A stretch of 64,000 nucleotides of DNA from an uncultured delta proteobacterium. GTDB taxonomy: Bacteria > Myxococcota_A > Polyangia > Fen-1088. The stretch lies in contig CAVYGB010000008.1 of NCBI GenBank assembly GCA_963767925.1, positions 480,001 through 544,000 of the forward strand, given 5' to 3'. Below are positions 19,354 to 42,504 of this stretch, one piece after another. The translations under genes were made by a program, and so were the position numbers. The notes beneath the pieces are model-generated. The model was not told where the DNA came from, did not search any database, and worked only from the letters and a program-made list of their open reading frames with translations. How positions within the stretch are numbered: the stretch's first letter is position 1; the number at the start of each line of letters is the position of its first letter.

Positions 19354-19381
19354 TCAAGGGCCCTGACCGATCCGTCGAACA
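19354..19381 (+). promoter_or_regulatory. sigma28-like promoter of the FHA gene
   Basis: TCAA-N16-GTCGAACA. Confidence 0.5.
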
Positions 19382-19399
19382 CCAGAGGTGCGAGCCACG

Positions 19400-19903
19400 A
19401 TGGCCAAATACGTTGCGGACTACGTCGACGACCTGCGCGCCCACGGGGCCAGCAAGATGTCCACGGAGACGATTCATCCTGCCCTGGTGCTGACCGGGGT
19501 GGTGGGGACCCTGCGCGAGCAGAAGCGCGCTTCGGGCACGATGGCCACCGACATGACCGAGATGTTGACCCTGAGCAAGCTGGTGGGCAGGGTCTTTCCG
19601 GTCAGCAAGCGCAAGGACTCGCCCCCCGGACCGGTGGTGGTGGGGCGCAGCTCCGAGAACGACGTCTCCATCGCCGACTACTCGATCTCCAACCGCCACT
19701 GCTTCTTCGTCATCGGGGGCCGCGAGCCCCAGCTCATCGATTGTGGCTCCACCAACGGAACCCTGATCAATGGTACGAAGGCGCCCGCCAAGCAGCCGGT
19801 GTCCCTCAAGGGGGGCGAGACCGTGGTCATCGGCCGGTTCGCCTTCCTGTTCTTCCGTCCGGTCGGATTCCTCGAGTACCTGGTCCAGCAGCAGCAGGGC
19901 TGA
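19400..19903 (+). CDS. FHA-domain protein
   Basis: VVVGRSSENDV..SISNRHC..DCGSTNGTLING, the conserved FHA G-R, S-x-x-H and NG residues. An alternative GTG start is at 19388. Confidence 0.9.
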   Translation: MAKYVADYVDDLRAHGASKMSTETIHPALVLTGVVGTLREQKRASGTMATDMTEMLTLSKLVGRVFPVSKRKDSPPGPVVVGRSSENDVSIADYSISNRHCFFVIGGREPQLIDCGSTNGTLINGTKAPAKQPVSLKGGETVVIGRFAFLFFRPVGFLEYLVQQQQG

Positions 19904-19951
19904 GCGGTCGCCTCTCTCGGACCTCGCCGGGGTCCGAGACACGGATTTGAC

Positions 19952-19979
19952 TCAAGGTTCTTCCGCCCGGATCCGATGC
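19952..19979 (+). promoter_or_regulatory. sigma28-like promoter of the sigma54 activator gene
   Basis: TCAA-N16-TCCGATGC, with 7 nt between it and ATG 19987. Confidence 0.55.
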
Positions 19980-19986
19980 TTGCGAC

Positions 19987-21198
19987 ATGGACCTGACACG
20001 GACGTTCGCCGGTGACCCCGGGTCATCGGCGTCCGCCGCTAAGACCACGTTCCAGGATGGGCTGGTGTGCTCCCCGGTCTCACCGCTGGTCGACCTGCGG
20101 CGGACCTGCATCCGGGTAGCCGCCACCCAGGCGACGGTGCTCCTGACCGGGGAGACGGGCACCGGCAAGGAGGTCTTCGCCCGGCTCATCCACGCCAACA
20201 GCCCGCGGGCCAAGCACCCCTTCGTGCCGGTCAACTGCAGCGCCATCCCCGAGGCCCTGCTGGAGAGCGAGCTGTTCGGGTACGTCAAGGGGGCCTTCAC
20301 CGGCGCGACCCATCCCCGCCGGGGGCGGGTGGCGCTGGGCGAAGGTGGCACCCTCATGCTCGACGAGATCGGCGAGCTGCCCCTGGGCCTGCAGGTCAAG
20401 CTGCTGCGCCTGCTGCAAGAGCGCACCTACGAGCCGGTGGGCAGCTCGGAGTCAGTGGTGGCCGACTTCCGCCTGGTGGCCGCCACCAACCGCAACCTCG
20501 TCGAGGAGGTGCGGCTGGGCCGCTTCCGCAAGGACCTCTACTACCGCCTCAATGTCTGCCCCATCCACCTGCCGCCGCTGCGCGAGCGGCGGGGCGACAT
20601 CGCCGAGCTGTTCTTTCACTTCTGGCAAGGCCGCGGCGAGCGCCGCGAGATCGACGCCGCCGTGATCGAGCGCCTGCAGCTCTACGAGTGGCCGGGCAAC
20701 GTGCGCGAGCTCGAGAACCTCGTCGAGCGGCTGTCGGTGATCGCCGAGGGGGACGTGATCCGGCTGGAGGATCTGCCCTCGCCGCTGTGGGAGCCGGTCG
20801 AGCACGCGGAGTCGAGCTCGCTGGAGACCACCTCGCTGCTGACCAGCGGCTACTCGATCGCGGTGCCGCCGGCCTCGACGCCGGAGCCGAGCTTCCCCTT
20901 CGAGCGGCCGCTCCCCCTGACCACCCCGACGCCGGCCCCCCTGGATCCGGAGGGGGTGCGCGAGCTCCTCACCGACGCCGAGGGGGGGACGCCCCGCCCC
21001 GAGGTGCTGCCCCGGCCCCACCTGGCCTTACCGGTAGACCTGCCTGGCTACCTGCGCGACCTGGAGAAGGCCTACATCGACGAGGCCCTGACCCAGACGG
21101 GAGGCAACAAGAAGGAGGCCGCCCGCCTGCTGGGAATGGGGCGCACGACCCTCGTCGAGAAGCTCCGCCGCCGCAACGCCGGCACGTCAGCGGCCTGA
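19987..21198 (+). CDS. sigma54-dependent activator (bEBP; FleQ/FlrA-like position) lacking an N-terminal sensory domain
   Basis: [45 protein letters not shown] and a C-terminal Fis HTH ([20 protein letters not shown]). Confidence 0.93.
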
Positions 21199-21227
21199 CC
21201 GCGACACACCCCTGACGAGATCGGGGG

Positions 21228-21243
21228 CGGCACACCGCCTGCA
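21228..21243 (+). promoter_or_regulatory. sigma54 -24/-12 promoter
   Basis: CGGCACACCGCCTGCA: GG-N10-GC with a GGCAC core. Confidence 0.65.
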
Positions 21244-21255
21244 GCGGCCCTGGCC

Positions 21256-22617
21256 GTGACCATCGCCGCAGCGCTGCTCCTGACAGGCTGGCTGGCCGCC
21301 GAGGCTCCCGGCGAGGCCGCGGGGTCCCCCGACCCGACCGTGCCCCTCGTGCTGACCGCCGAGCGGCTGGCGCTACCCCGCCTGCGCGGCCCGCTCGAGC
21401 TGCGGGTGGACGCCCTGGGGGCGGCGATCGAGCTGCAGGCCCCGCGCGATCTCGGCGCCCTGGCGGCGGCCGTGGCCCGGGGGGCCCGCAACATCTGCCC
21501 GAGCTGGGAGGTCGGCGAGGGCCGCATCGTGCTCCGCTGTCGAACCCGGCGGCTGCGCGCCCGGGTGACCGGCGAGCGCAAGGGCGGGCAATTCCTCGAC
21601 CTGCAGGAGCTGCGAGGGCTGCCCCGGGACGAGGAGGTCGACCGGCTCGACCTGTTTTACGATCCGATCCCCGCCGGTCTCGGTGGCCCCTGCCCGGGGA
21701 CCACGCCGGGGGTCCAGGCCGAGTGCAGCTTGCGCGACGGCAAGACCGACCAGGCAGAGGCCCTGTTCCGGCAGGCGCTGGTGGGCGCTGACCAGACCAT
21801 GGCGGTGCTGCGGCTGGGGGATCTCGCGGCCGCCCGCGGCGACTTCCCGGGGGCGGCGCTCATGTGGAGTCGGGCGGGCTCGCGGGGGCCCTTCGGACGG
21901 CTGGCCGCCACCCGGGTCTGTGAGCTGAGCGGGTCCTGTCTGGGCAGCAAGGATCCCGGGCGGCTGTTCGACGCCGGCGAGGTGGCGGAGCCGATGCGGA
22001 CCGAGCTGGCCATACGCGGCGCCCGCGCCGAAGCCTTCGTGGGGAGGCTGCAGGCGGCCGTGCTCCGCCTGCGGGCGATGGTGGCGCTGGGATCGGTGAG
22101 CGGCGGCTGCGTGACGGTGGGGGCCCACATGTGCCGGCGCGTGCTGCAGGTGGCGGTGGAAGAAGGCGATCCCGAGGTCGCCCGCCTGGCCATCGAGGTC
22201 TACCTGTCGCTGCCCGACCGCGAGGAGGGCCCGGACAACGTGACCCTGGCGCGAATCGTCGCGGAGCGGGCGTTGCGGCTGGGCGCGCCCGCCTTCGCGG
22301 CCAACCTGCAGGCCTCGGTGGCCGCCGCGGTCTCCGACAAGGAGATCCCCGAGCACCTCCTGCGCACCGCCGAGCTCTATCTGCTGAGCGGAGACGGCGC
22401 CCGCGCCCAGCTCATCGCCGACTACGCCGACTCGCGCCTGACGCCCGGCCAGCTCCGCAGCCGGCGCTGGGCGCAGGTGCGGCGGACCCTCCTCGAGATG
22501 GCCCAGTCCTCGCCCAACGATCTCCGCCTCGCGCGCGAGCTGATCGAGGGCGAGGCGGCGCGCGACCTGGCCGACGCCATGATCTCGCTCTCGCGCGCCC
22601 GGACGCGGCAGCCATGA
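21256..22617 (+). CDS. Unknown secreted, Cys-containing, helical (TPR-like) protein preceding flgB
   Basis: Signal-like N-terminus, GC3-biased frame and TPR-like segments (AEALFRQAL, LRLGDLAAARGDFPGAALMW). No family recognised. Confidence 0.65.
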   Translation: MTIAAALLLTGWLAAEAPGEAAGSPDPTVPLVLTAERLALPRLRGPLELRVDALGAAIELQAPRDLGALAAAVARGARNICPSWEVGEGRIVLRCRTRRLRARVTGERKGGQFLDLQELRGLPRDEEVDRLDLFYDPIPAGLGGPCPGTTPGVQAECSLRDGKTDQAEALFRQALVGADQTMAVLRLGDLAAARGDFPGAALMWSRAGSRGPFGRLAATRVCELSGSCLGSKDPGRLFDAGEVAEPMRTELAIRGARAEAFVGRLQAAVLRLRAMVALGSVSGGCVTVGAHMCRRVLQVAVEEGDPEVARLAIEVYLSLPDREEGPDNVTLARIVAERALRLGAPAFAANLQASVAAAVSDKEIPEHLLRTAELYLLSGDGARAQLIADYADSRLTPGQLRSRRWAQVRRTLLEMAQSSPNDLRLARELIEGEAARDLADAMISLSRARTRQP

Positions 22618-22653
22618 ACCTGACTCGGAGGGCGCTCCCGACGTCCTCCGGGC

Positions 22654-22669
22654 TGGCATGACGTTGGCA
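22654..22669 (+). promoter_or_regulatory. sigma54 -24/-12 promoter of the flgB operon
   Basis: TGGCATGACGTTGGCA: GG(22655-56)-N10-GC(22667-68). Confidence 0.7.
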
Positions 22670-22683
22670 ATGGGTTCCCGGCC

Positions 22684-23013
22684 ATGAGGATCTTCGACGC
22701 TACTTTGACTATTCTCGAGCGGTCCCTCGACGTACGCCTCGCGCGCCACAGCGCGCTCTCCGGGAATCTCGCCAATATCGACACGCCCGGGTACGTGCCC
22801 AAAGACATCGATGTGACGGACGCGATGGTGAGCGGCGAACCCGCCGCCCTCGCGGTGAGCGCGGCGATGATCACCGGGGAGCGGGACAGCGTCGATCTCG
22901 ATCGCACGATGGCCACCCTCGCCGAAAACGGCATGCAATACGGGGCCGGCGCGCGGGCGGCTGGCAAGAAGCTGGCGATCCTGCGCTACGTGGCCACCGA
23001 CGGCAACGGCTAG
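22684..23013 (+). CDS. flgB: Flagellar basal-body rod protein FlgB
   Basis: LSGNLANIDTPGYVPKD and SVDLDRTMATLAENGMQY. Confidence 0.92.
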   Translation: MRIFDATLTILERSLDVRLARHSALSGNLANIDTPGYVPKDIDVTDAMVSGEPAALAVSAAMITGERDSVDLDRTMATLAENGMQYGAGARAAGKKLAILRYVATDGNG

Positions 23014-23028
23014 TCAGGGAGGTGACAC

Positions 23029-23439
23029 ATGGACTTTTTCACGGCTTTGCGAATCAGTGGCTCGGGGCTGTCCGCGGAACGCACGCGGGTCAACATCGCG
23101 GCTTCGAACCTGGCCAACGCGGAGACGACCCGGACCGCGCAGGGTGGGCCCTACCGCCGCCTGGATCCGGTGTTCAGCCCGGTGCAGGTGACCGACATGC
23201 CCGAGGGGCCCGAGGCGGTGCAGGTGACCCGCATCGTGAGCGACGACTCGCCCGGCCGGCGGGTCTATAGCCCCGGGCACCCCGACGCCGACGACGACGG
23301 CTACCTCAGCTTGCCCAACGTCAACCCGATCCACGAGGTGGTCAACCTCCTGTCGGCCTCGCGCGGCTACGAGGCCAACTCCACCGCGGTGGAGACCCTC
23401 AAGCAGATGGCCGGCCGGGCCCTGGACATCCTGCGCTGA
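23029..23439 (+). CDS. flgC: Flagellar basal-body rod protein FlgC
   Basis: ISGSGLSAERTRVNIAASNLANAETT..GGPYRR, PGHPDAD, PNVN and ASRGYEAN. Confidence 0.96.
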   Translation: MDFFTALRISGSGLSAERTRVNIAASNLANAETTRTAQGGPYRRLDPVFSPVQVTDMPEGPEAVQVTRIVSDDSPGRRVYSPGHPDADDDGYLSLPNVNPIHEVVNLLSASRGYEANSTAVETLKQMAGRALDILR

Positions 23440-23451
23440 GGGAGGTGACCC

Positions 23452-23865
23452 ATGGCCAGTGAAACCGAGCTCCGGCTGATCAGCCCGATCGAGTCCGTCG
23501 GTCCGCAGCGGCTGCTGCAGCCCAAGATCTCTCCCCTCGCCGAGGGGTTCTCCAGCGAGCTGGGCCACGCCATCCAGGGGCTGGAGAGCCGGCGCCCGGA
23601 TCCCGCGGTGGCCCCGGTCGAGGCCATGCCCGGGGTGGGCGAGGTCGGCGAGGGCTTCGGCGGGCAGATCAAGCAGGCCGTCCGGGCCCTCGACGACCTG
23701 CAGCTCGCCGCCGACCGCCAGGCCGACGCCGTGGCCCTCGGCTCGGGCAACCTGCACGAGACCGCCATCGCCTTCGAGAAGGCCGACGTCGCCATCCGTC
23801 TGGCCAGCCGCATCCGCAACAAGATCGTCGAGGCTTACAACGAGATCATGCGGATGAGCGTGTAG
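23452..23865 (+). CDS. fliE: Flagellar hook-basal body protein FliE
   Basis: NLHETAIAFEKADVA..IRNKIVEAYNEIMRMSV. Confidence 0.93.
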   Translation: MASETELRLISPIESVGPQRLLQPKISPLAEGFSSELGHAIQGLESRRPDPAVAPVEAMPGVGEVGEGFGGQIKQAVRALDDLQLAADRQADAVALGSGNLHETAIAFEKADVAIRLASRIRNKIVEAYNEIMRMSV

Positions 23866-23869
23866 AGGT

Positions 23870-25435: not shown

Positions 25436-26456
25436 TTCTCGATCGGATGGACGGGGCGGCGATCCCGTCGGGCTGGGCGCCCGGCGGGCGGCGGCGGTGC
25501 TGGTGGGGCTGGGCCGGGACACAGCCGGCCAGGTGTTCCGCCAGCTCGACGAGGCGACGATTCGCCAGCTCGCCCTCGGGGCGCGCGAGCTGCGGCGCAA
25601 TCCCAACCTGGTGGCCGAGGCGCTCGACACCTTCGTCCAGGCGATGGAGAGCCTGGTCGGAGACGCCGCCGCCAGCGACGGCCTCCTGCGCGAGTTCGCC
25701 ACCCGGGCGCTGGGCCCCGAGGCGGCCCGGCGGGCCTTCGACGGGGTGGCTGCCCCCCCGCCTGTCGATGAGGTGCTGGGCCCGGTGGCCCAGGCCGACG
25801 CCGAGGCCCTGGCCATGATCCTCGGGCGCGAGCAGCCGCAGACGGTGGCCCTGGTGCTGGGGTCGCTCGAGCAGCAGCGGGCGGCCGCCGTGCTCAAGCT
25901 CTTGCCCGAGCGGTCCAAGCCGCAGGTGCTGCGCCGGCTGGCCACCCTCGAGTCGGTGGCGCCCGAGGTGCTGCGCGAGGTGGGTCAGGCCCTCTCGTCG
26001 GAGCTGCGGGCGGCCCACGGCGGCGGCACCCGCCGGGTGGACGGCAAGGCGGCCGCGGTGTCGCTGCTGCGGCGCTGTCCCGCGGTGCAGCAGACCGAGG
26101 TGGTGGGCGAGATCGAGAAGGACGATCCCGAGCTGGCCACCGAGCTGCGCACGAAGCTCTTCACCTTCGAGGATCTCGTCAACCTCACGGACCGGGACAT
26201 CCAGACCTTCCTCCGGGAGATCGACAGCGCCCGGCTCACCGTGGCCCTCAAGGGGGCCAGCCCGTCGGTCACCGCCAAGGTGTTCAAGAACATGTCGAGC
26301 CGGGCGGCCGAGATGCTCAAGGACGAGATCGCGGCCATGGGGCCGGTGCGGGTTGCGGCGGTGGAAGAGGCCCAGAACGAGCTCGTCAAGACGGCGTTCG
26401 CCCTGGCGGAGCAGGCCCGCATCACGCTGGTCGGCCCCGCGGACAAGATGGTCTAG
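25428..26456 (+). CDS. fliG: Flagellar motor switch protein FliG
   Basis: EQPQTVALVL (EHPQ-like), LFTFEDL, NMSSRAA and MGPVR..VEEAQ. Confidence 0.94.
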   Translation: MADSRSDGRGGDPVGLGARRAAAVLVGLGRDTAGQVFRQLDEATIRQLALGARELRRNPNLVAEALDTFVQAMESLVGDAAASDGLLREFATRALGPEAARRAFDGVAAPPPVDEVLGPVAQADAEALAMILGREQPQTVALVLGSLEQQRAAAVLKLLPERSKPQVLRRLATLESVAPEVLREVGQALSSELRAAHGGGTRRVDGKAAAVSLLRRCPAVQQTEVVGEIEKDDPELATELRTKLFTFEDLVNLTDRDIQTFLREIDSARLTVALKGASPSVTAKVFKNMSSRAAEMLKDEIAAMGPVRVAAVEEAQNELVKTAFALAEQARITLVGPADKMV

Positions 26457-27161
26457 ATGGCGGCGCCCCCCTTCAAGCCCCGGCGTCCCAGCTTCATGGG
26501 TCAGGCCGATCCGGCCGTGCCCCAGATCCGGCGCGCCTTCATGCCCGCAGAGTCGGACCAGGTCGGCGAGCCCCTGCCGGTGGTCTCGGCCGAGGTGGTG
26601 TCCAGTGTGCCGGTGCTGGGGTCCGGCCACCCGTCGATGGCCCTGCCGGCGCCGCCGTCCCCGCCCCCGCTGTTGCCCCCGCCGACGGGGCCGGGGTCGG
26701 CGCCCGCGGACGCGGCCGCTCACGCCGACGCGCAACGCCTGGAGCACGCCCTCGATCGCCTGCAGATGCTGGGCGATCGGCTGGCGGCCGAGGCCCGGGC
26801 CGACGCGGTCGAGGTGGCGCTGCTGGTGGCGCGCAAGATCGTGGAGGGGGAGCTGGAGGTCAACGTCGACCGCTTCCTGGCCATGGTGCGCTCGGCGGTG
26901 CGCCGGCTGGGTGAATCCCGGCGGGTCGTCATCCGCCTGGCCCCCGCCGACGCCGAGGTCGTCGAGTCGATGCGCCAGCGCAACGGCGGCGAGCTGGCCG
27001 GCTTCAGCTCGATCCAGATGGAGATCACGGCCGACCCAACCCTCAAGCGCGGCGACGTCGTCGTGGAAGGCGATCTGGTGGCCATCGACGGACGACTCGA
27101 CACGCGGATGGCAGAGATGCGGCGGGCCCTGGCCGAGCAGGCCATGGAGGAGACGACGTGA
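26457..27161 (+). CDS. fliH: Flagellar export protein FliH
   Basis: Lies between fliG and fliI; VARKIV..VVIRLAPAD..DPTLKRGDVVVE..IDGRL. Confidence 0.85.
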   Translation: MAAPPFKPRRPSFMGQADPAVPQIRRAFMPAESDQVGEPLPVVSAEVVSSVPVLGSGHPSMALPAPPSPPPLLPPPTGPGSAPADAAAHADAQRLEHALDRLQMLGDRLAAEARADAVEVALLVARKIVEGELEVNVDRFLAMVRSAVRRLGESRRVVIRLAPADAEVVESMRQRNGGELAGFSSIQMEITADPTLKRGDVVVEGDLVAIDGRLDTRMAEMRRALAEQAMEETT

Positions 27162-28599
27162 GCCTACTGGACGTGAGCCGCATCGAGCGGGCCCTGGTCG
27201 ACCTCGATCCGGTGGCGGTCTCCGGCCGGGTCACCCGGGTCTCGGGGATCGTCGTCGAGGCGGCCCTGCCCCAGGTGGCGGTGGGCACCTCCTGCGAGAT
27301 TCATGCGGTGGGGGGCAAGATGATCGCCTCGGAGGTGGTGGGATTCGTCGGGGCCCACGCCCTGCTGATGCCCTTCGGCGAGGTCAAGGGCATCGGCGAG
27401 GGCTGCGCGGTCCGACCCCGCACCAGCGCCGGGGAGATCCTGGTGGGCCAGGCCCTGCTGGGGCGGGTGGTCAACGCGGCGATGGTCCCGCTCGACGGGC
27501 TGGCGCCGCTGCACCTTGCGCTCGCGGGTGCCCCTGCACGCCGCGCCTCGCCGCGGCCATGGGCCGGCGGCGGATCGCCGCCCCGCTCGAGCTGGGGATC
27601 CGGGCCCTCGACGCCTTCCTCACGGCGGGCGAGGGGCAACGGCTGGGGATCATGGCCGGCCCGGGGGTGGGCAAGAGCGTGCTGCTGGGGATGTTGGCCC
27701 GCAACGCCGCCGCCGACGTCATCGTGGTGGGGCTGGTGGGCGAACGGGGCCGCGAGGTGCGCGAGTTCGTCGAGCGGGACCTGGGCCCCGAGGGCCTCCG
27801 CCGCTCGGTTGTGGTTGTCGCCACCGGCGACGAGTCGCCGCTGGTGCGGGTGCGGGCGGCGATGGCCGCCACGGCGGTGGCGGAGTTCTTCCGCGAGCGG
27901 GGCAAGAAGGTGCTCCTGCTGGTGGACTCGCTGTCCCGGGTGGCGATGGCCCAGCGGGAGATCGGGCTCGCGGCGGGCGAGCCGCCCACCTCGCGCGGGT
28001 ACCCGCCCTCGGTCTTCGCCCTGCTGCCCCGCCTGATCGAGCGGGCGGGCAACGACGCGGGACCGGGGAGCATCACGGCCCTCTACACGGTGCTGGCGGA
28101 GGGCGACGATCTCAACGAGCCGGTCTCCGACGCGGCCCGCGCCGCCCTCGACGGTCACGTCGTGCTGTCGCGCAAGCTGGCCAACGCGGGCCACTTCCCC
28201 GCCATCGACGTGCTAGCCAGCATCAGCCGGGTGATGACCGACGTGGTGACCGCCGGTCACAAGGAGCTGGCCCTCAGCGCCCGCGAGCTGCTGGCGGCTT
28301 ACCGCGAGTCGGCCGACCTGATCGAGGTGGGGGCCTACGCGGCGGGGAGCAATCCCCGGGTCGATCGGGCCATCCGCTGCCGGGATACCCTGAGCGCCTT
28401 CCTCCGCCAGCGCGGCGACGAGCGGCCGGCGCTGAGCCAGACGCTGAGCGAGCTCAAGCGGGCCCTGGCCCCCGCCGGCGGCCCGGCGCCGGGCGCGCCC
28501 GGCGTCGCGGGGATGCCGGGATTCCCGGGCGCGCCGGGAGCCACGGGAGCGTCCGGAGTCCCGGGCGCGCTGGGAGGAGGCAAGCCAGACCATGTTTGA
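27158..28599 (+). CDS. fliI: Flagellar export ATPase FliI, with apparent frameshifts near 27516 and 27548
   Basis: N-terminus SGRVTRVSG..LLGRVVN. After the frame changes come GEGQRLGIMAGPGVGKS, GERGREVREF, DSLSRVAMAQREIGL, GYPPSVF and LDGHVVLSR. Confidence 0.92.
28492..28581 (+). repeat. 9-bp periodic repeat encoding 10 Gly-X-Y triplets at the FliI C-terminus
   Basis: GAP GVA GMP GFP GAP GAT GAS GVP GAL GGG. Confidence 0.8.
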
Positions 28600-32720: not shown

Positions 32721-32721
32721 C

Positions 32722-33492: not shown

Positions 33493-33525
33493 CAAAGCAG
33501 CAGCGACCGAAAGAAGTGACCGAAC

Positions 33526-34305: not shown

Positions 34306-34375
34306 GGGCGAGGGCGGGGCTTCGCCTCCGGGACGAGGGCGAGGACGGGGACGGGCGGCCTCGTGCGGTCGTCCG

Positions 34376-35581
34376 TCAGGTGGAGGGGCGGTCGGCTTCT
34401 TCGGCGGCGATCTGGCGCCAGGCGGGGAGCTCGGCGGTCAGCTCCAGGCGAGCCAGCAGGGCGGTGTCGAGGCGGGGGGCCAGGCTGAGGTGGCCCGCCG
34501 GCGCGGGCGCCACCTCGCCGGCGAGGGCGCTCGCCACGTGCAGGGCGCAGACCGGCTCGAGGCCGGTGGGGTTCGAGCGCTGGGGCGCGTGCTGGTGGGC
34601 CACGGCGTCCACGATGGTGTCGGGCAGGCCCCAGATGCCCAGCAGGTAGGCGCCAATCTCGGCGTGGGTGACACCGAGCACCTCGGCCTCCACCTCCCAG
34701 ATCGGGCGCCCGGAGGATAGGGCCAGCTCGAGGACGCGGCCGAACGGCTCGGGCAGGTGGCTCATCAGCACCAGGATGCCGGTGTCCTTGAGCCGGGCGG
34801 CCGAGCCGGCGTCCTGGGCCGACTGGCGATCGCGGAGCAGGCGCCGGGCGATCTGGGCGGTGAGCTGGGTGTGGCGGTCAGCCGCCGCCAGGTCGAAGCC
34901 GCCCCAGAGGTCGTCGCGGATCTGGGCCGTCTGCACCTCGGACGACTGGGCCAGGGTTCGCACCAGCTCGAGGCCGAGCGCGGAGACCGCCGTCCGGACG
35001 TCGACGACCCGCTGGCGCAGGCCGAAGAAGGCCGAGTTGACGATTTGCAAAAATTTGGCGGAGAGGCCGGGGTCCCGCTCCAGGGCCGCGGCCGCCTCGG
35101 GCATCGTCACCTGGGGGTTGGAGAGCACCTCGACGATCGGGCCGTAGAGCGCCTGGCGCACGGGGAGCTGTCCGATCTGGCCGACCGCGCTGCGCAGGGA
35201 GGGCGTCTCGACCAGGGTCTGCTGCCGGCAGGCGCGCTCGATGACCCCCTGGAGCTCCCGCCCGTCGAAGGGCTTCGAGATGAACTGGTGGGCGATGTAC
35301 ACCATCCGCCGGGTCACCTCCTGCTCGGTCTGGCCCGAGAGGACGATGCGGATGACATGGGGGTACTCCTGTTGCACGGTCCGCAACAGGGCCGCCCCGT
35401 CGATCCCCGGCATGCGCATGTCGGTGACCACCAGATCGTAGCGGCCGGCCGCCAGCTCGCGCAGGGCCTGCTCTCCGCCCTCGGCGAACGTCATCTCCCA
35501 TTGCTTGCGTTGCTTGCGGAGGAGGCCGCGCAGCCCTTCGAGGACGTTGGGCTCGTCGTCGACGAACAGGATTCGCTTCAT
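34376..35581 (-). CDS. Response regulator, REC + HDOD
   Basis: ILFVDDE..VVTDMRMPGIDG..LSG..FISKP, then DPGLSAKFLQIVNSAFFG..HAEIGAYLLGIWGLP. Confidence 0.92.
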   Translation of the reverse strand: MKRILFVDDEPNVLEGLRGLLRKQRKQWEMTFAEGGEQALRELAAGRYDLVVTDMRMPGIDGAALLRTVQQEYPHVIRIVLSGQTEQEVTRRMVYIAHQFISKPFDGRELQGVIERACRQQTLVETPSLRSAVGQIGQLPVRQALYGPIVEVLSNPQVTMPEAAAALERDPGLSAKFLQIVNSAFFGLRQRVVDVRTAVSALGLELVRTLAQSSEVQTAQIRDDLWGGFDLAAADRHTQLTAQIARRLLRDRQSAQDAGSAARLKDTGILVLMSHLPEPFGRVLELALSSGRPIWEVEAEVLGVTHAEIGAYLLGIWGLPDTIVDAVAHQHAPQRSNPTGLEPVCALHVASALAGEVAPAPAGHLSLAPRLDTALLARLELTAELPAWRQIAAEEADRPST

Positions 35582-35600
35582 GTCGGTTCCCTGTGCAGAT

Positions 35601-35628
35601 CGGTCGTCGGAAGCGGGGTGAGGCTTGA
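35601..35628 (-). promoter_or_regulatory. sigma28-like promoter of the REC-HDOD gene
   Basis: Minus strand TCAA-N16-GACGACCG (weaker -10). Confidence 0.4.
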
Positions 35629-35671
35629 GCCCCCCACGCCGCCGGGCGCCGGCGCCAGCCCCCCGGACGAC

Positions 35672-35699
35672 TCAATGTCCCGGGCGGGGCAGCCGAAGG
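35672..35699 (+). promoter_or_regulatory. sigma28-like promoter of the histidine kinase gene
   Basis: TCAA-N16-GCCGAAGG. Confidence 0.55.
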
Positions 35700-35732
35700 A
35701 TCAGCCATCGTGGGTAGCGGCGGGCGGGGACT

Positions 35733-37340
35733 GTGAAGAAGGGCGTCCACACGCTGTTGATGGCCGCGCGCCAGATCGCGCTGCTGGCCGCGGAGCGTGG
35801 CGACCTGAGACGCCGGGTCAACGAGACGCTGCCCTTGCCGATGTACGTGGTGCGGCCGGCGAGCAACGTCGATCAGCTCGTCGAGCTCGTGACGCGCACC
35901 AAGACCGAGGTGGCGCTGGTGGAGGTGAGCGAGGCGGGCCCCCTGAGCTTCCTCGAGCGGCTCCGCACCGCCGATCCCGACATGGAGATCCTCCTGGTGG
36001 CCGACGGGGGGAAGGTCGATCTGGCGGCGGCGGCCAGCTTCCGGGCCTCCTTCGACATCCTCGAGCAGCCCTTCCAGAACGCGCTGCTGGCCCGGCGGGT
36101 GGAGCTGGCCCGCGATCGGCGCTACCTGCGGCGGGCCGAGCAGCGGCGCGAGCGCCTCGAGGCGCGCATGAGCGCCATCATGCAGACGGTGCCCACCGGG
36201 ATCCTCTCTTTCGACGACGAGAGCCTGATCCACGACTGGAACCCGGCGGCGGCCCGCATCTTCGGCTACTCGGAGGTGGAGGTGCTGGGGCGGAACGTCT
36301 GGGACATCACCGGCCTCGACGCCACCGCCCTGCGGGGCGGCGACGGCCGGCTGACCCTCGACAAGAAGCTCGAGCGGTCGGCCCGCCGGCGCGACGGCAG
36401 CTCCTTCCCCATCGAGATCTCCCTGGTCTCGCTCCCCCTGTCGGAGCGGAACATGACCTGCGCCATCGTCGAAGATCAGACCGCCGCCAAGGCCCTCGAG
36501 CTGGAGCTGCGCCAGGCCCAGAAGCTCCAGGCGGTGGGGCAGCTCTCGGCCGGCCTGGCCCACGAGATCAACACCCCCTGCCAGTACATCGGGGACAACG
36601 CCGCCTTCCTCGAGACGACCCTGGGCGATCTGGTCCCCTTGCTCTCCAGCTACCGGGAGCTGATCCAGGTGGCCGAGGGCGGGCCCCTGCCGCCCGATCG
36701 GGTGGCCGGGCTGCGCGAGCGGGAGCGCGACGCCGACGTGGAGTACGGCCTCGAGCGCCTGCCCCGGGCCATCGAGGGCATCACCCAGGGGGTGAAACAC
36801 ATCGCCTCGATCGTGGCGGCGATGAAGTCCTTCTCGCGGACCGACTGGCGCGAGGGGAACAACATCGACCTCAACGAGCTGCTGAGCAACGTGCTCACCG
36901 TGATCCGCCACGATCTGCAGGCGGTGGCCGATCTGGAGACCGACCTGCAGCCGCTGCCGGCCATCGTGGGCCACGGGGGCGACCTGCACCAGGCGCTCTA
37001 TCACATCGTCCGCAACGGCGTCGACGCCATCGCCGTCCGGGCCGGCGACGAGCCGGGGCGGGGCAAGATCGTCGTGCGCTCGCGCCGGGAGGAGACGGGG
37101 GTGACCCTGACCTTCAGCGACACCGGCTGTGGCATCCCCGAGCGCATCCGCCCCCGGGTGTTCGAGCCGTTCTTCACCACGAAGGTGGTGGGCAAGGGGA
37201 CCGGGCAGGGCCTGGCGGTGGCCTGGTCGATCATCGTGGAGAAACACCGCGGGCGGCTCACCTTCGACAGCACCGAGGGCGAGGGCACCACCTTCTACGT
37301 GCACCTGCCCTGGGCCCCGGCCCGGGTCAAGGTGGGCTGA
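35733..37340 (+). CDS. Cytoplasmic PAS sensor histidine kinase with a degenerate REC-like N-terminus
   Basis: PAS WNPAAARIFGY..RRRDGSSFPIE; H-box AHEINTP; RNGVDA, DTGCGI, FEPFFTTK and GTGQGL. Confidence 0.93.
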   Translation: MKKGVHTLLMAARQIALLAAERGDLRRRVNETLPLPMYVVRPASNVDQLVELVTRTKTEVALVEVSEAGPLSFLERLRTADPDMEILLVADGGKVDLAAAASFRASFDILEQPFQNALLARRVELARDRRYLRRAEQRRERLEARMSAIMQTVPTGILSFDDESLIHDWNPAAARIFGYSEVEVLGRNVWDITGLDATALRGGDGRLTLDKKLERSARRRDGSSFPIEISLVSLPLSERNMTCAIVEDQTAAKALELELRQAQKLQAVGQLSAGLAHEINTPCQYIGDNAAFLETTLGDLVPLLSSYRELIQVAEGGPLPPDRVAGLRERERDADVEYGLERLPRAIEGITQGVKHIASIVAAMKSFSRTDWREGNNIDLNELLSNVLTVIRHDLQAVADLETDLQPLPAIVGHGGDLHQALYHIVRNGVDAIAVRAGDEPGRGKIVVRSRREETGVTLTFSDTGCGIPERIRPRVFEPFFTTKVVGKGTGQGLAVAWSIIVEKHRGRLTFDSTEGEGTTFYVHLPWAPARVKVG

Positions 37341-37347
37341 GCGGCGG

Positions 37348-38880
37348 TCAGCCGGGCCCGGCCGGCGCGGCGGCCGGGCGATCGAAGACGGTCACGCTGT
37401 TGCCGCCGGTGGCCCTGGCCGCGTCGAGGGCCCCGTTGCCGAGGGCCAGCAGGGTCTGCCAGTCTCCCGCGGCCCCGCCCTGGGAGGCGGTGCAACCGAG
37501 CGAGATGGTGACCCGCGGGGACCAGCCGGCGCCGATGTCGTAGTCCTCGGTGCAGATCAGCTTGCGCGAGCGCTCGGCCACCACGACCACCCCCGCCCGG
37601 CCGGTCTCGGGCAGGACGAACAGGAACTTGCCCTCGACGACCCGGGCGACGATGTCGCTCCGCCGCAGCCGGCTTCCGAGCCGGCGTGCCACCTCCTGCA
37701 ACAAGGTGGTCACCTGCTCGGGGCGGAGGCGGGTCGACAGCTCGCCCCAGGCGTCGACCTCCGCGAGGATCAGGCCGACCGGGGCGTCCAGCCGGGCGGC
37801 CTCGGCCAGGCTCTCTTGCAGGTAGCGCTCGGCGAAGGCCCGGGTCGGCAGGCGGGTCTCGGGATCGTACTCCGGCTGAGGATCCGGGAGCCGGCGGCGG
37901 CCCCCGCCGGTGGCTTCCCCGGCCGGCGCTTCGGCCGCGGCGCCGCCCTCGGCCACGTTGGCGATGGCCAGCGCCTCCTCGGCTTGCTCGGCCACCCGGG
38001 CGATGGATGCGGCGTCGCCGAGGTCGATCTGGAACAGGCTGGCCGCCTGGGGGATGGCGGCGACCAGGCGCCGAACGACGTTTTCCAGGGCGAAGCCGGG
38101 CTGGCCGATGATCTTCCGCGCCTCGATGTGGGCGCGCTGGGCGGCGCCGCTGGCGTCGGGCCGGATCCAGATGTCGGCCACGCTGCCCGAGAGCGCGGTC
38201 GTGCGCAGCAAGGTGGTGAGGTCCTCGCCCAGCTCCGCCTCCAGCTCGTCGGGCGGGGGGTGGTGGCTGTGGCTGATGGCGATCCGGAAGCAATCGGGCA
38301 GCCGCCAGCGGCCGACCAGCCAGGCTCCCACCTCGGTGTGGTCGCAGCCGAAGATGTTGCGCTCGCCCGCCCCGACGCGGTCGTGGTCCTGGGCGGCGGT
38401 CTGCAGGAGGTCCTGGTAGACGGGATCGCCGAGCTGGCGCAGGGCCAGCATGCCGATGTCCTGCAGCAGGGCGGCCAGGAAGGCCTCCTCGCGCAGGCCG
38501 AAGCCGATCTCGGCGGCGATCTCGCGCGCGCTCAGGGCGGCCAGCACCGAACGTTTCCAGTAGCTGGACACGGCGGCGATCTGGCCGTCGCGGGCGTCGC
38601 GCAGGAGCGAAGACGAGAGGATGAGGGTGCGGACGGCGTTGACCCCCAGCAGGGTCACGGCGTTGGTCAGGGTCCGGACCTCGTCGCGCCAGGAGAAGGC
38701 GGGTGAGTTGGCCGCCTTCATCACACGCGCCGCCAGGGCGGGGTCGTTGCCCACGAGCTTGGCGATCTCCTCGAGGTCCAGGTTCTCCCGCTGGCACAGC
38801 TCGAGCGCGCGGATGGCCACCGTGGGGAGCGTGGGCAGGACGGCGAGGCCCCCCAGGCGGGACTTCAGGGCTTCGTTCAC
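37348..38880 (-). CDS. HDOD + degenerate GGDEF-domain protein
   Basis: GTG 38880 overlaps the upstream TGA. LPTLP..DPALAARVMKAANS..LLQDIG..HTEVGAWL, then YDPETRLPTR..RRSDIVARVVEGKF (no GGDEF). Confidence 0.87.
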   Translation of the reverse strand: MNEALKSRLGGLAVLPTLPTVAIRALELCQRENLDLEEIAKLVGNDPALAARVMKAANSPAFSWRDEVRTLTNAVTLLGVNAVRTLILSSSLLRDARDGQIAAVSSYWKRSVLAALSAREIAAEIGFGLREEAFLAALLQDIGMLALRQLGDPVYQDLLQTAAQDHDRVGAGERNIFGCDHTEVGAWLVGRWRLPDCFRIAISHSHHPPPDELEAELGEDLTTLLRTTALSGSVADIWIRPDASGAAQRAHIEARKIIGQPGFALENVVRRLVAAIPQAASLFQIDLGDAASIARVAEQAEEALAIANVAEGGAAAEAPAGEATGGGRRRLPDPQPEYDPETRLPTRAFAERYLQESLAEAARLDAPVGLILAEVDAWGELSTRLRPEQVTTLLQEVARRLGSRLRRSDIVARVVEGKFLFVLPETGRAGVVVVAERSRKLICTEDYDIGAGWSPRVTISLGCTASQGGAAGDWQTLLALGNGALDAARATGGNSVTVFDRPAAAPAGPG

Positions 38881-39614
38881 GTGATGTTGGGCTCGTGCCG
38901 GGGGGAGCGGCGGCCGGCCGCGAGGAAGGCGGCGATGCGGTCGGGCAGGCTGCGGCTGTCGAGCGGCCCGGCCAGGTACCCCTCGCAGCCGGCGGCCTTG
39001 ATTCGCTCGGCGTCCTCGGCGCTGGCCGGGCTGGCCAGCGCCACGACCGGGAGGTCGCCGGTGTCCGGGCGGGCCTTGAGCTGGCGGGTCAGCTCGAGCG
39101 CGTCGGCGCCCCCGAGGTGCAGGTCGATCAGCACGAGGTCCGGGCGCAGGCGGGCCAGCAGGGCCCACATCTGGTCGCCGGTGGTCGCCTTGTAGACGTC
39201 GTAGCCGCTGTGGGTGAGCAGGCGCAGCAGCGCGGGCAGGTCGGCGCCGTTGTCGTCGACCACGAGGATGCGCGAGCGCCGCCGGTGGGGCCGCTCTGGC
39301 CGCCGGGGGTCACCCGGGCGCTCCGCCTGCTCGAGCAGGTCCCGGAGCTGGAGGGCGCTGGCCAGCAGGTCATCCAGGCAGGCGTCGAAGGCCGGCGAGC
39401 CGGGGGCCACCAGCCGGTCGCGCAGCGTCTCGGCCAGCACCACCACCGCGTCGAGGGGGGTGTGCAGGGCCTGCGACCCGCCAGGTAGCGGCTCGCCTCC
39501 GGCCGGACGATCGTGCCAGACCTCCGGACCAACCTTCCCTGGCCGGGCGGGCGGGGCGGCCCGTCCGCGCGCGCCGGGAGGGCGCGGCTCTCGTTCGTCT
39601 CGCTGGGCGCTCAT
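38877..39614 (-). CDS. Atypical response regulator (REC) with an N-terminal HisKA-like helix
   Basis: RILVVDDN..PDLVLIDLHL..AAGCEGYLAGP (conserved Lys missing); SQALHTPLDAV lies upstream of it. Confidence 0.75.
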   Translation of the reverse strand: MSAQRDEREPRPPGARGRAAPPARPGKVGPEVWHDRPAGGEPLPGGSQALHTPLDAVVVLAETLRDRLVAPGSPAFDACLDDLLASALQLRDLLEQAERPGDPRRPERPHRRRSRILVVDDNGADLPALLRLLTHSGYDVYKATTGDQMWALLARLRPDLVLIDLHLGGADALELTRQLKARPDTGDLPVVALASPASAEDAERIKAAGCEGYLAGPLDSRSLPDRIAAFLAAGRRSPRHEPNIT

Positions 39615-39646
39615 CGCTGACCGACTACCTGGGCGCGGCTTCGATC

Positions 39647-39674
39647 GCTTCGGCAGCCCGTCTCCGGACGTTGA
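39647..39674 (-). promoter_or_regulatory. sigma28-like promoter of the REC / HDOD-GGDEF operon
   Basis: Minus strand TCAA-N16-GCCGAAGC. Confidence 0.55.
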
Positions 39675-39718
39675 GTCGAGGCCGAAGAAATCAGGTGTAG
39701 CGACGAGGGCTTCAGGGC

Positions 39719-39745
39719 TCAAGTTACCTCCAGGGGGGTCGATGC
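39719..39745 (+). promoter_or_regulatory. sigma28-like promoter of FlhG paralog 1
   Basis: TCAA-N15-GTCGATGC, starting TCAAGTT. Confidence 0.62.
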
Positions 39746-39765
39746 CAGCCCTGGGAGGAGGACGG

Positions 39766-41130
39766 GTGCAACAGACATCGGACGCGTCGCCGCCGGGGCT
39801 TTCGCCGGGAGCAGCGCGGAGTACGCGGTTCGTGAGCGTGGGCGGCGGCAAAGGGGGGGTGGGCAAGAGCCTGGTGGCGGCCAACCTCTCGGTCGCGCTG
39901 GCCCACGCCGGGCACGAGGTGGTGCTCTGCGATCTCGACCTCGGCGCAGCCAACCTGCACCTGCTGATGGGTCAGATGCAGGCCCGGGCGGGCATCCCCG
40001 CCCTGCTCGCTGCCGACGGCGTCCTGGAGGAGGCGCTGACCGATACGGTGGTGCCGGGGTTGCGGCTGGTAGCCGGCACGGGCGGAGCGGCCGGCGCCGC
40101 CAACGTCTCCTTCGCCCAGAAGCTCCGCATCATCCGCAAGCTGCGCAACCTGCGCAGCGACTTCGTCGTGATCGACGTGGGTGCGGGGGTCGGCTACAAC
40201 GCGCTCGACTTCTTCGAGCTCGGGCAGATGCGGCTGATCGTCGCCACCCCCCAGGTGACGTCGATGCACGACGCCTACGCCTTCCTCAAGGGCGCCCTGC
40301 TGCGCACCCTGCGCCACCACGCCAAGGGCGAGGCCGAGCGCGAGCTGCTCGAGCCGGCCCTGGCCACCAAGGATCGGGAGAAGGTCAAGGATGCCCTGCT
40401 GCGCATCGGCGACGTCAACCCGACCTTCGGGGCCAAGGTCCAGCAGATCGTCGGCCACTTCGGGGCCAACCTGGTCGGCAATCAGGTCGAGAGCCGGTCC
40501 CAGCTCGGGGTGTTCCAGGCGGTGGCCCGCATGGCCGAGGACTTCCTGGGCCTCAAGCTGCCCATCCTGGGCTGCATCCCGGCCAGCGCCCGCCTGGCCA
40601 ACTCGGTCAACCAGCGGCACCCCTTCCTGGCCACGGTGGCGCCCGGCCAGCACACCCCCGAGACCGACGCCTTGAGGTCGATCATGGAGGGGCTGCTTGT
40701 CGCCGATCTGGCGCCGGAGGAAGAGCTGCTCGTCGAGCTGATCGAGGAGGGGACCCCCGAGGTGTTCGAGACGCCGTCCGACCCCTCCTCGCCGGTGATC
40801 CCGACGCCCGTGCTGGCCGGCAACGAGAGTCCGGTCCGCGCCAGCCCGGCCAGTGCCAGCCCGGCCAGTGCCAGCCCGGCCAGTGCCAGCCTGGCCAGCG
40901 AAGCCGGGGAGGCGCCCGCCGCGCTCGAGGTCCTGTCGGCGCTGGCACCGGGCGAGATCGAGGTGCCAGATCTGCCGGCCGCGGTGGTCAAGCCCCGGGT
41001 GCTGGCGCCCCGCCTGCGCAAGCGCAAGCCGGAGTCGGAGGAGACCAAGCGCAAGCGGGCCCTCGACCGGCAGGGGCGGCGCCGCAAGATCACCCTGCCG
41101 GGGATGACCCCCTTCCGGTTCAAGGGCTGA
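39766..41130 (+). CDS. MinD/FlhG(FleN)-like ATPase, paralog 1, with a long C-terminal tail
   Basis: Deviant Walker A GGGKGGVGKS, DLDLGAANLH, VIDVGAG and ATPQVTSMHDAYAFLK; GGAGGAGG SD before GTG 39766. Confidence 0.87.
   Translation: MQQTSDASPPGLSPGAARSTRFVSVGGGKGGVGKSLVAANLSVALAHAGHEVVLCDLDLGAANLHLLMGQMQARAGIPALLAADGVLEEALTDTVVPGLRLVAGTGGAAGAANVSFAQKLRIIRKLRNLRSDFVVIDVGAGVGYNALDFFELGQMRLIVATPQVTSMHDAYAFLKGALLRTLRHHAKGEAERELLEPALATKDREKVKDALLRIGDVNPTFGAKVQQIVGHFGANLVGNQVESRSQLGVFQAVARMAEDFLGLKLPILGCIPASARLANSVNQRHPFLATVAPGQHTPETDALRSIMEGLLVADLAPEEELLVELIEEGTPEVFETPSDPSSPVIPTPVLAGNESPVRASPASASPASASPASASLASEAGEAPAALEVLSALAPGEIEVPDLPAAVVKPRVLAPRLRKRKPESEETKRKRALDRQGRRRKITLPGMTPFRFKG
40840..40899 (+). 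repeat. 15-bp tandem repeat x4 (GCCAGCCCGGCCAGT; ASPAS)
   Basis: Three exact copies and one variant copy, in frame. Confidence 0.9.
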
Positions 41131-41159
41131 CCCCGGTGCGCAACTACAAATCCGTTGGA

Positions 41160-41187
41160 TCAAGCAGCGGCGCGAAAGCGCCGATGC
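41160..41187 (+). promoter_or_regulatory. sigma28-like promoter of the HDOD gene
   Basis: TCAA-N16-GCCGATGC. Confidence 0.55.
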
Positions 41188-41198
41188 CGTAGATCGCC

Positions 41199-42443
41199 GT
41201 GACTGCGTCCGCGATGTTGGACCTTCAAGCCGCCGTCCGGGCCCTCATCCGGAGCGAATCGGTGCCGATCCAGCCCTACCCCGGGGTGGCGATGCGGCTG
41301 CAGAAGCTGGTGTCCAGCGGCAACTACGGCACCCGCGAGCTGGCCACCATCGCCGCCGGCGAGCCGGTGGTGGTCTCCCGGCTGTTCCTGTGTGCCAACG
41401 GCGCGGCCTTCGCCAGCTCGGGGGAGGCCAAATCGCTGGCCGAGGCGATCACCCGCCTGGGCGGCCAGGAGGTGGTGCGGATCGCCATCGCCGCCTGCCT
41501 GGGCGTGCAGAACGCCCGCCCCGGCCCCCTGGCCTCGGTCCGCGCCCGGATCTGGCAGGAGGCCATCACGGGCGCCTTGATCGCCGCGCAGATCGGCCAC
41601 GCCCGGCGGGTCAGCGCCGACGAGGCCTTCCTGTGTGGGCTGCTCCACGACATCGGGCGGGTGGTGGCGGTCTCCTGCCTGGAGGTCGTGCTGGCCCGCC
41701 ACGGGGACCGGCGGCTGCTGTCGGAGGACGAGTGGCTGGCCGAGATCGAGCCGCTGAAGACCGAGATGGGCGTCCTGGTGGCCACCCACTGGAAGCTCCC
41801 CGACGTGGTGAAGGCGGCGATCTCCGATCACCGGGCGGCGCCCGAGGCCGGCCCCCACGGCGTCATGGCGACAATCATCCGCACCTCCGACGAGGTCGTC
41901 CGGCTCCTGATGTCCGAGGCGCACGTGACCGACAGCGCCCTGCTGGCCATCCCCACCATGAACCGGGCCGAGGCCACCTTGCTGCTGGGGGTCATCCCCT
42001 CGATCGGGCCGCTGGTGGCGGGCCTCACCGACAAGCCACCCTCCTCGGGCGTCTCGGGCACGTTTGCCATCCCCTCCCAGGTGGTCAAGCCGGCCCAGCC
42101 TGCCCCGGAGGCGGCCCCCCCGGAGGAGAGCGACATCCCGGTCACTCTGTTCAAGGGACGCCAGCCCTTGCCCGGCCGCTGCAACCAGATGTTCAACCGT
42201 TCGTTCAGCGTCGCCGTCGCCCAGCCGGTCGAGGAGAACTACCTGGTCAAGGTGGTGTTCGCCCAGCCCGGGGAGGTCGCCTTCGAGGTCCACGCCCGGG
42301 TGCTGTCCTGCACGCCCGGACCGCGGGGCTTCCAGGTCCAGGCCGCCCTGTTCGCGCTGGCCGGACCGGGCAAGGAGCGCTGGAACGCCCTCCTCAAGTC
42401 GGTCACCGCCGCCCCGCCGTCCCGCCGCCCCGATCCGCAGTAG
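41199..42443 (+). CDS. HDOD-domain protein with a C-terminal beta-rich (PilZ-barrel-like) domain
   Basis: YPGVAMRL..SLAEAITRLG..AFLCGLLHDIG..HWKLP. The C-terminal FSVAV..FEVHARV resembles a PilZ barrel without the RxxxR motif. Confidence 0.8.
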   Translation: MTASAMLDLQAAVRALIRSESVPIQPYPGVAMRLQKLVSSGNYGTRELATIAAGEPVVVSRLFLCANGAAFASSGEAKSLAEAITRLGGQEVVRIAIAACLGVQNARPGPLASVRARIWQEAITGALIAAQIGHARRVSADEAFLCGLLHDIGRVVAVSCLEVVLARHGDRRLLSEDEWLAEIEPLKTEMGVLVATHWKLPDVVKAAISDHRAAPEAGPHGVMATIIRTSDEVVRLLMSEAHVTDSALLAIPTMNRAEATLLLGVIPSIGPLVAGLTDKPPSSGVSGTFAIPSQVVKPAQPAPEAAPPEESDIPVTLFKGRQPLPGRCNQMFNRSFSVAVAQPVEENYLVKVVFAQPGEVAFEVHARVLSCTPGPRGFQVQAALFALAGPGKERWNALLKSVTAAPPSRRPDPQ

Positions 42444-42477
42444 CCCGGGTGGCGCCGCCCCCGGCCCCTCGGGGGTT

Positions 42478-42504
42478 TCAAGTTCTCGGCGGGGGAGTCG
42501 ATGG
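42478..42504 (+). promoter_or_regulatory. sigma28-like promoter of FlhG paralog 2
   Basis: TCAA-N15-GTCGATGG, starting TCAAGTT; same layout as paralog 1. Confidence 0.62.

Follow-up and report, generated by a model that had tools for sequence, protein, structure and literature searches.

The 64,000-nucleotide stretch of DNA analysed here (the window; G000:C8:480001-544000, where G000 is a 9.3-Mb assembly that is 84% complete and C8 is its contig CAVYGB010000008.1) carries a flagellar operon running from flgB to motB, flanked by FHA, sigma54-activator, HDOD, kinase, GGDEF, and MinD-like genes, and a bipartite promoter box of the TCAAG type lies before eight genes or operons in these flanks (Table 1). 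The motif occurs far above chance and is not confined to the flagellar locus. Comparative sequence analysis indicates that the eight boxes probably belong to a set of about 110-130 sigma28-type sites dispersed over the genome and read by a non-flagellar FliA paralog, termed sigma B, which would be held in check by an FlgM-like protein, and that one of the eight would turn on the activator that heads the flagellar cascade. A first-pass annotation had described the eight boxes as a single late regulon attached to the flagellar locus. Neither part of this description persists in that form, since more than 90% of the sites lie elsewhere in G000, though the window is unusually dense in them, while fliC and flgM have another box and one of the eight sites precedes the gene that is likely the top activator of the flagellar operons, and thereby points to an early role.

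The box was modelled with a matrix that was seeded with the pattern of the first-pass annotation, refined solely on upstream regions outside the window, and converged on 155 sites with the consensus TCAAG-N15 (85%) or N14 (14%)-GYCGATG, the CGA being present in 98-99% of them. The eight sites of the window, which start at exactly the coordinates and on the strands originally reported, are the eight best matches of the whole 64 kb (16.3-19.8 bits), followed by a match of 14.8 bits within a gene. Written as TCAA[GCT]-spacer-hexamer, six of the boxes have a spacer of 15 nucleotides (nt) and two (39719 and 42478) one of 14 nt; the architecture is that of a sigma28-type promoter as proposed, with a -35 element TCAAG, a -10 element with a CGA core, and a fixed spacer. 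Eight matches of at least 16 bits fall in the six intergenic gaps that hold the boxes, whereas 1000 first-order Markov (Markov-1) resamplings gave 0.007 on average and never more than one. The window, with seven boxes counted, compares with 140 genome tiles of which the densest has six and 70 have no box. The absence of the motif before treS, DUF262 (GmrSD), and the head of the TonB operon was likewise borne out (best scores -2.7, 1.8, and -1.5, respectively). The names given to the downstream genes agree with Pfam and NCBIfam, except that the two genes called FlhG can be named only as far as MinD/ParA-type ATPases.

In upstream intergenic regions beyond the window, the simple pattern TCAA[GCT]-N-[GT][CT]CGA[TA] at spacer 15 has 44 sense against 14 antisense matches, while sense matches at other spacers number nine at 14 nt and 0-8 at the remaining 12. 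With the matrix, 111 upstream regions reach at least 15 bits at spacer 15, a count that is somewhat optimistic because the matrix was trained on those very sites, compared to 22 at spacer 14 and 2-14 at other spacers. From these counts, the true sites in G000 are estimated at about 110-130. Moreover, no coding ATG lies 7-8 nt past the -10 hexamer, but 24 of 166 lie at 9-12 nt. Gene calling covers 77% of G000 and misses genes, so that part of the matches classed as intergenic are coding; unrestricted regular-expression counts over the whole of G000 gave no spacer peak, the signal being swamped by codon periodicity and missed genes, and counts of a loose pattern in 25 genomes, made with no control at shifted spacers, carry no information. 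Ten pairs of boxes stand back to back in G000, two of them in the window (35628 with 35672, and 39674 with 39719).

The box is commoner before signalling genes, as had been claimed (29/373, or 7.8%, vs. 2.1% of other genes; odds ratio 3.9), although the hidden Markov models of the signalling families were seeded partly from the targets, which makes the enrichments of STAS, CheW, and SpoIIE partly circular. When the best 80 sites outside the window, out of 155 candidate targets, were scanned against Pfam, 23 of the downstream genes encoded signalling proteins (receiver, histidine and Ser/Thr kinase, GGDEF, HD, EAL-HDOD, PP2C, STAS, CheW, and GAF), one an extracytoplasmic function (ECF) sigma factor, and several solute-binding or secreted proteins, while 21 had no Pfam family. 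The expected presence of the motif before chemotaxis genes was confirmed for five of the nine chemosensory operon heads (at least 15 bits, vs. 3.0% of 4384 operon heads), with a sixth at 13.9 bits. Outside the window, no significant enrichment was found for FHA (1/29), sigma54-activator (1/40), or HDOD (1/7) genes, and none of seven clusters of type IV pilin-like genes scored above 8.2 bits. Other dense clusters of the box, at C6:333000-354000, C10:305900-316100, and C2:1489900-1502000, surround chemosensory, PP2C/STAS partner-switching, and HDOD genes, and five periplasmic-binding-protein genes (PF13458) are among the box targets. A 128-aa gene without an NCBIfam family, divergent from flgF (G000:C8:569000-569453, plus strand), also has a TCAAG-type box (15.2 bits), which recurs in G009, G010, and G015 (18.0-21.1 bits).

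The presence of a sigma28-family gene, on which the original interpretation depended, is confirmed threefold. G000, whose FliA has its closest relatives in metagenome-assembled genomes labelled Myxococcales or Polyangia, encodes three FliA-family sigma factors (A, B, and C), which fall into separately supported groups (100/99, 100/99, and 100/100) of a midpoint-rooted tree of 40 rows, four of them long and of unsure place. The FliA/WhiG profile gives 190.1 bits to sigma A (cut-off 189.6), 227.6 bits to an intact sigma B orthologue, and 148.9 bits, below the cut-off, to sigma C. Sigma B is found in all of the 24 family relatives compared (G001-G024, of which 15 are flagellated), with 76-100% identity and as one open frame in most of them. 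Additional sigma B-like paralogs (L361-L365, in G010, G007, G015, G011, and G022), with 54-66% identity and located away from flagellar genes, form the sister group of sigma B in the tree.

Promoters of its own kind on the anti-sigma gene and on its own operon are the usual mark of the specificity of a sigma factor. The locus of sigma B comprises pilT, a receiver-domain sigma54 activator, the sigma gene itself, and an FlgM-like gene, flgM2, that scores above the PF04316 cut-off and follows sigma B within 700 nt in 22 of the 23 relatives examined (it lies farther off in G015, and G014, whose sigma B locus is split, was left out of the count). A TCAAG-type box stands 9-10 nt before the flgM2 ATG in 21 of the 22 relatives with the gene in reach, including eight of the nine flagellum-less genomes (17.4-21.0 bits; G016 has a TTCAG variant). 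GCCGAT-type boxes precede the receiver-activator of the sigma B operon (8.9-20.4 bits in the 17 relatives with this gene in the locus), and a TCAAG-type box precedes pilT in several genomes. The position of the box on flgM2 and on the operon of sigma B makes this sigma factor its likely reader, and FlgM2 likely restrains sigma B as the partner in a predicted FliA/FlgM-type pair. Release of FlgM2 by export through the hook-basal body cannot apply in the flagellum-less relatives. A sigma54-type site was recognized upstream of sigma B in 19 of 21 loci with a pattern of spacing only and no background control, whereas a stricter first pattern found it in four of 21. The ATPase gene beside sigma B was tentatively labelled CpaF; this name was rejected, as NCBIfam places the protein in the PilT/PilU family.

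The best matrix match in the window, the box at 19952, lies before a sigma54 enhancer-binding protein whose AAA+ domain starts at residue 36 and is accompanied by no other Pfam domain; neither Pfam nor the sequence reveals an N-terminal domain of the FleQ or receiver type. Its orthologue is present in 15/15 flagellin-positive and 0/9 flagellin-negative relatives (E<=1e-95), and in the same nine genomes, which are 86-100% complete, flagellin, FliG, and this activator were all not found. The pattern T[CAT]AAG-N14/15-NYCGAT precedes 14 of the 15 orthologues, in comparison with 1.0% of 3000 random genes, and in 12 of the 14 box-bearing orthologues the ATG follows the hexamer by 9-15 nt. In G000, the transcription start predicted from the box (E. 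coli numbering, C-13 G-12) coincides with the A of the ATG at 19987, so that a leaderless mRNA is predicted. For the other seven boxes, the predicted starts lie at 19389, 35593, 35707, 39639, 39753, 41195, and 42512, all to within 1 nt. The activity of the protein is likely set by its level, because it has no sensor domain. By its distribution and position, it is likely the top activator of the flagellar operons, with a role that may resemble that of FleQ or FlrA, although it is not classed as FleQ.

A sigma54-type -24/-12 site lies before flgB (Table 1), and an equivalent was recognized by eye in 11 of 12 upstream sequences from relatives. Further sigma54-type sites stand at flgF and fliL, and the flgB upstream region has no TCAAG box. 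An unannotated gene of 453 aa (window 21256-22617, plus strand), conserved in flagellated relatives, lies between the head activator and flgB; its look-alikes in the ESM Atlas are TPR proteins, including DUF7494/PflA-like clusters, with scores of 0.91-0.93, which is a lead only. In G013, the flagellar cluster (C3; L227, L244) is far more divergent than in other family members (FliG 29% and FliF 32% identity) and the head-activator orthologue lies on another contig; the activator beside flgB in this genome was rejected as the orthologue, and the true one was used for the box count.

The most economical order that can be predicted from these sequences runs from the receiver-activator through sigma54 to sigma B, from sigma B to the head activator, and from there through sigma54 to the flagellar operons, including that of sigma A, and finally to fliC and flgM. 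In this scheme, the receiver-domain activator would drive sigma B from the sigma54 site, and sigma B would in turn transcribe that activator, closing a positive feedback loop, as well as flgM2, closing a negative one. Sigma B would also transcribe pilT, five or six of the nine chemosensory operons, many genes for cyclic di-GMP (c-di-GMP), HDOD, PP2C/STAS, and kinase proteins, and the 19987 gene. The amount of the sensor-less activator made from this gene would determine the switching-on of flgB, flgF, and fliL at their sigma54 sites. The fliL-fliA operon would then yield the flagellar sigma A, which would read only the TTA[AT]C-N11-cCGT-GHCGAA box at fliC and flgM.

This last box, found as TTA[AT]C-N11-cCGT-G[TAC]CGAA in 12 of 17 flagellin and four of five flgM upstream regions of the relatives, bears directly on whether the flagellar FliA, sigma A, instead reads the eight sites as ordinary late promoters, the flagellin box being merely their strongest variant. 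Several observations agree with such an arrangement: sigma A passes the FliA/WhiG cut-off and is encoded near the window, in a second flagellar cluster (fliC, flgM, fliA, flhA, and fliL) that lies 15-36 kb past it; few stretches of the genome are as dense in the motif as the window; the number of HDOD genes varies together with flagella; the genome-wide motif excess is greater in flagellated relatives; and the boxes have the -10 CGA core in common. However, the boxes of fliC and flgM make up a conserved class of their own. A matrix built from 16 sites of the relatives, with G000 excluded, ranks fliC (29.5 bits) and flgM (26.3 bits) of G000 first and second genome-wide, but gives the eight window sites -11.4 to 5.9; conversely, the TCAAG model gives fliC just 7.5 bits and flgM 12.5 bits, so that the first-pass expectation of the same motif before flagellin was not upheld. 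No flagellin upstream region was found within the 64 FliA loci. Furthermore, genomes in which neither sigma A nor flagellin was found still have the TCAAG box at sigma B, flgM2, and the PAS-kinase gene, which is at odds with a regulon lost along with flagella, and a late sigma factor driving the activator of its own operon would need another starter promoter, none of which was identified. Reading of the eight boxes by sigma A is for these reasons considered improbable.

A third box, GCAAC (once ACAAC)-N14/15-NYCGA, lies downstream of sigma C in ten of 21 loci and, in G000, in 16 upstream regions (12 with spacer 14), most of which belong to genes whose function is unknown. As the main reader of TCAAG, sigma C was ruled out by its sigma70-like own promoter, the lack of an FlgM gene nearby, and this different downstream box. 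A partial division of labour, in which the programme is started by sigma B while part of the TCAAG set is also read by sigma A, by sigma C, or by the additional sigma B-like (B2) paralogs of some relatives, is rather unlikely. The observations in its favour are the intermediate score of the flgM box on the TCAAG model, the flgM2 boxes, which are often TTAAG or TAAAG, and the 39674 box, whose TCAAC is one base from the GCAAC of sigma C. Two studies point the same way, as the promoters of WhiG1 and WhiG2 were inseparable in Denis et al. (PMC12871210) and E. coli sigma28 reads the -35 element weakly (bioRxiv 10.1101/2020.01.02.893370). On the other hand, the TCAAG and flagellin matrices separate their sites in both directions, and the preferred spacers in G000 differ (14 for GCAAC, with 12 matches, vs. 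15 for TCAAG, with 40). Of the two region-4 residues of E. coli sigma28 reported at the -35 element, K208 and R220, both are kept in sigma B, K208 is changed in sigma A, and both are changed in sigma C. Their retention lends weak support to sigma B as the TCAAG reader because they contact phosphates and not bases (bioRxiv 10.1101/2020.01.02.893370).

Several observations weigh against a sigma B regulon with the head activator among its targets. The CGA core is common to all three boxes, so that cross-reading among the sigma factors may occur. G008 has no box at its head activator, and many relatives have a second activator directly before flgB, because of which the targets of the head activator are only inferred. 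HDOD genes number 5-16 in each flagellin-positive genome and 0-2 in eight of the nine others (the exception, G001, has five), and with this copy number tracking flagella, the window targets may well serve motility. The whole-genome excess at spacer 15 is modest in flagellum-less relatives (123 vs. 183 over two control spacers, ratio 1.34) and larger in flagellated ones (363 vs. 437, ratio 1.66), the genomes compared being kin and not independent; it is absent in G016, G018, G023, and the flagellated G013, and slight in G019. Box targets other than the sigma B locus itself are poorly conserved, with a box of at least 14 bits in two of 25 FHA-GGDEF homologues (mostly paralogs) and two of ten DUF4388-DnaJ homologues, and one of three syntenic genes in G001 has no box. 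Lastly, sigma B is frameshifted in G000 by a one-base gap relative to G001. If sigma B were truly broken, the boxes could be relics of a decaying regulon, or else they could bind a regulator other than a sigma factor. Both options are highly improbable, since the boxes have the geometry of promoters (they favour one strand, keep a fixed spacer, and have ATGs from 9-12 nt onwards but not at 7-8 nt), frameshifts are common in the assembly, and sigma B is intact in most relatives. The frameshift is probably an assembly error, because five of 20 conserved open reading frames in G000 are also split, and so is rpoN. The genes fliI (window 27158-28599), rpoN (C8:277779-279237), and several nuo genes (C8:755600-763953) appear to be broken up over different reading frames, a sign that indel errors are frequent in this assembly.

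Table 1. Coordinates of the promoter boxes, the head activator, the flgB promoter site, and the three sigma factor genes (window positions, or contig positions where C8 is given)
Feature	Coordinates	Strand	Context	Score or basis
TCAAG-N15-GTCGAA box	19354..19379	+	before FHA gene 19400-19903	17.2 bits
TCAAG-N15-TCCGAT box	19952..19977	+	before head sigma54 activator (ATG 19987)	19.8 bits
sigma54 enhancer-binding protein	19987..21198	+	AAA+ with GAFTGA, Fis-type helix-turn-helix	Pfam and sequence
sigma54-type -24/-12 site	22654..22669	+	before flgB (22684)	TGGCATGACGTTGGCA, GG-N10-GC spacing
TCAAG-N15-GACGAC box	35603..35628	-	before REC-HDOD gene 34376-35581 (minus)	17.0 bits
TCAAT-N15-GCCGAA box	35672..35697	+	before PAS histidine kinase 35733-37340	16.6 bits
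TCAAC-N15-GCCGAA box	39649..39674	-	before REC protein 38877-39614 and HDOD-GGDEF 37348-38880	17.9 bits
TCAAG-N14-GTCGAT box	39719..39743	+	before MinD/FlhG-like ATPase 1, 39766-41130	19.2 bits
TCAAG-N15-GCCGAT box	41160..41185	+	before HDOD protein 41199-42443	18.3 bits
TCAAG-N14-GTCGAT box	42478..42502	+	before MinD/FlhG-like ATPase 2	16.3 bits
sigma A	C8:569463-570161		end of fliL-flhG operon; 25 kb past window	
sigma B	C8:751503-752272		about 207 kb beyond window; same locus as pilT, receiver-activator, and flgM2	
sigma C	C8:3090367-3091050		adjoins YscJ/FliF-family gene; locus C8:3090367-3092616	

The individual boxes of the window recur in some relatives. The box of the FHA gene is also found before its G012 orthologue and before an FHA gene adjoining the flagellar cluster of G013, and the REC-HDOD homologue of G012 has TAAAG-N15-GTCGAA upstream, while none was found upstream of the syntenic gene in G001 (best score 4.0). 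In G001, where no flagellar markers were found, the orthologue of the PAS kinase keeps TCAAT-N15-GCCGAA (18.7 bits) and that of the HDOD-GGDEF protein has TCAAA-N15-GCCGAA (15.0 bits). The second MinD/FlhG-like ATPase starts with the ATG at 42513, 10 nt past the -10 hexamer, and its homologues in G012, G005, and G017 have boxes of 21.6-25.3 bits. Apart from these elements, G000 contains a dispersed identical stretch of 31 nt in 26 copies, some pairs of which are 161 nt apart (e.g., C1:79978, C2:1831547, C6:93986, and C10:1613385), possibly a small mobile or repetitive extragenic palindromic (REP)-type repeat.

Broad or non-flagellar sigma28 regulons are already published as a general idea. In Bdellovibrio bacteriovorus (Karunker et al. 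2013, PMC3627812), 92 of the 140 promoters of the attack phase have a TTAAG-N16-CCGATA box; it has the same geometry as TCAAG-N15-GCCGAT, and in both organisms many non-flagellar genes lie downstream. However, one FliA is proposed for all of them in Bdellovibrio, whereas in G000 the box of the broad set is not that of the flagellin/flgM set, the sigma factors of the two sets are likely different as well, and the broad sigma has an FlgM-like partner of its own, away from the flagellar genes. In Actinomycetota, flagellum-linked and flagellum-independent sigma28 clades, WhiG1 and WhiG2, have been described (Denis et al., PMC12871210), and Actinoplanes missouriensis has FliA1-3 (PMC13689560). As in the present family, both kinds of clade coexist, and the predicted targets include c-di-GMP enzymes, chemotaxis, the type IV pilus, and the sigma's own promoter. 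The differences concern the anti-sigma, which is RsiG there and probably the FlgM-like product of the neighbouring gene here, the separate regulons, which could not be assigned there when the clades co-occur and are here distinguished by three boxes, and the sigma54 tier predicted here between the two sigma factors.

The class 3/4 flagellar promoters that FliA reads in E. coli (bioRxiv 10.1101/2020.01.02.893370) have the same C-13 G-12 A core as the boxes of G000, a FliA/FlgM pair for flagellin is likewise shared, and the sigma54-to-FliA order of flagellar genes in Geobacter sulfurreducens (PMC2725144) resembles the sigma54 sites before flgB, fliL, and the fliA-containing operon. In both of these systems, sigma28 is the last tier, whereas in G000 the sigma54 activator heading the cascade is predicted to be a target of a second sigma28. 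With sigma B as query, no orthologue was found in one Anaeromyxobacter and one Myxococcaceae genome. The SigF of Myxococcus xanthus is, we presume, FliA-like. This alternative sigma factor is tied to pilus-driven social motility (PMC9548883), which makes it a motility-tied sigma of a myxobacterium comparable to sigma B with its adjoining PilT-family gene. A literature search that covered few subscription journals and no supplements found nothing on the regulon of this family or on a sigma28 factor above a flagellar sigma54 activator.

In the wider reading of these data, sigma28 would have been tripled in this family, with its own -35 box for each copy, and sigma B would be a feedback-regulated lifestyle master switch over more than 100 signalling, chemosensory, and pilus genes and atop the flagellar cascade, to which flagella are connected as a plug-in through one promoter; the arguments for and against this reading are, in our judgement, evenly balanced. 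The same even balance applies to the alternating chain of sigma54, sigma28, sigma54, and sigma28 that it entails. Textbooks place sigma28 in the final tier of flagellar gene expression; if the reading is true, this order would be inverted, with a sigma28 paralog at the top and just one conserved promoter linking the flagella to it. The reading would also account for gain or loss of flagella within the family while the switch is kept. Moreover, three sigma28 paralogs that reside in one genome, their boxes differing mainly in the -35 element, constitute a natural test set for promoter choice by region 4, a division that the actinobacterial WhiG study left unresolved, and the list of boxes provides candidate regulation for more than 100 genes of an uncultured soil lineage.

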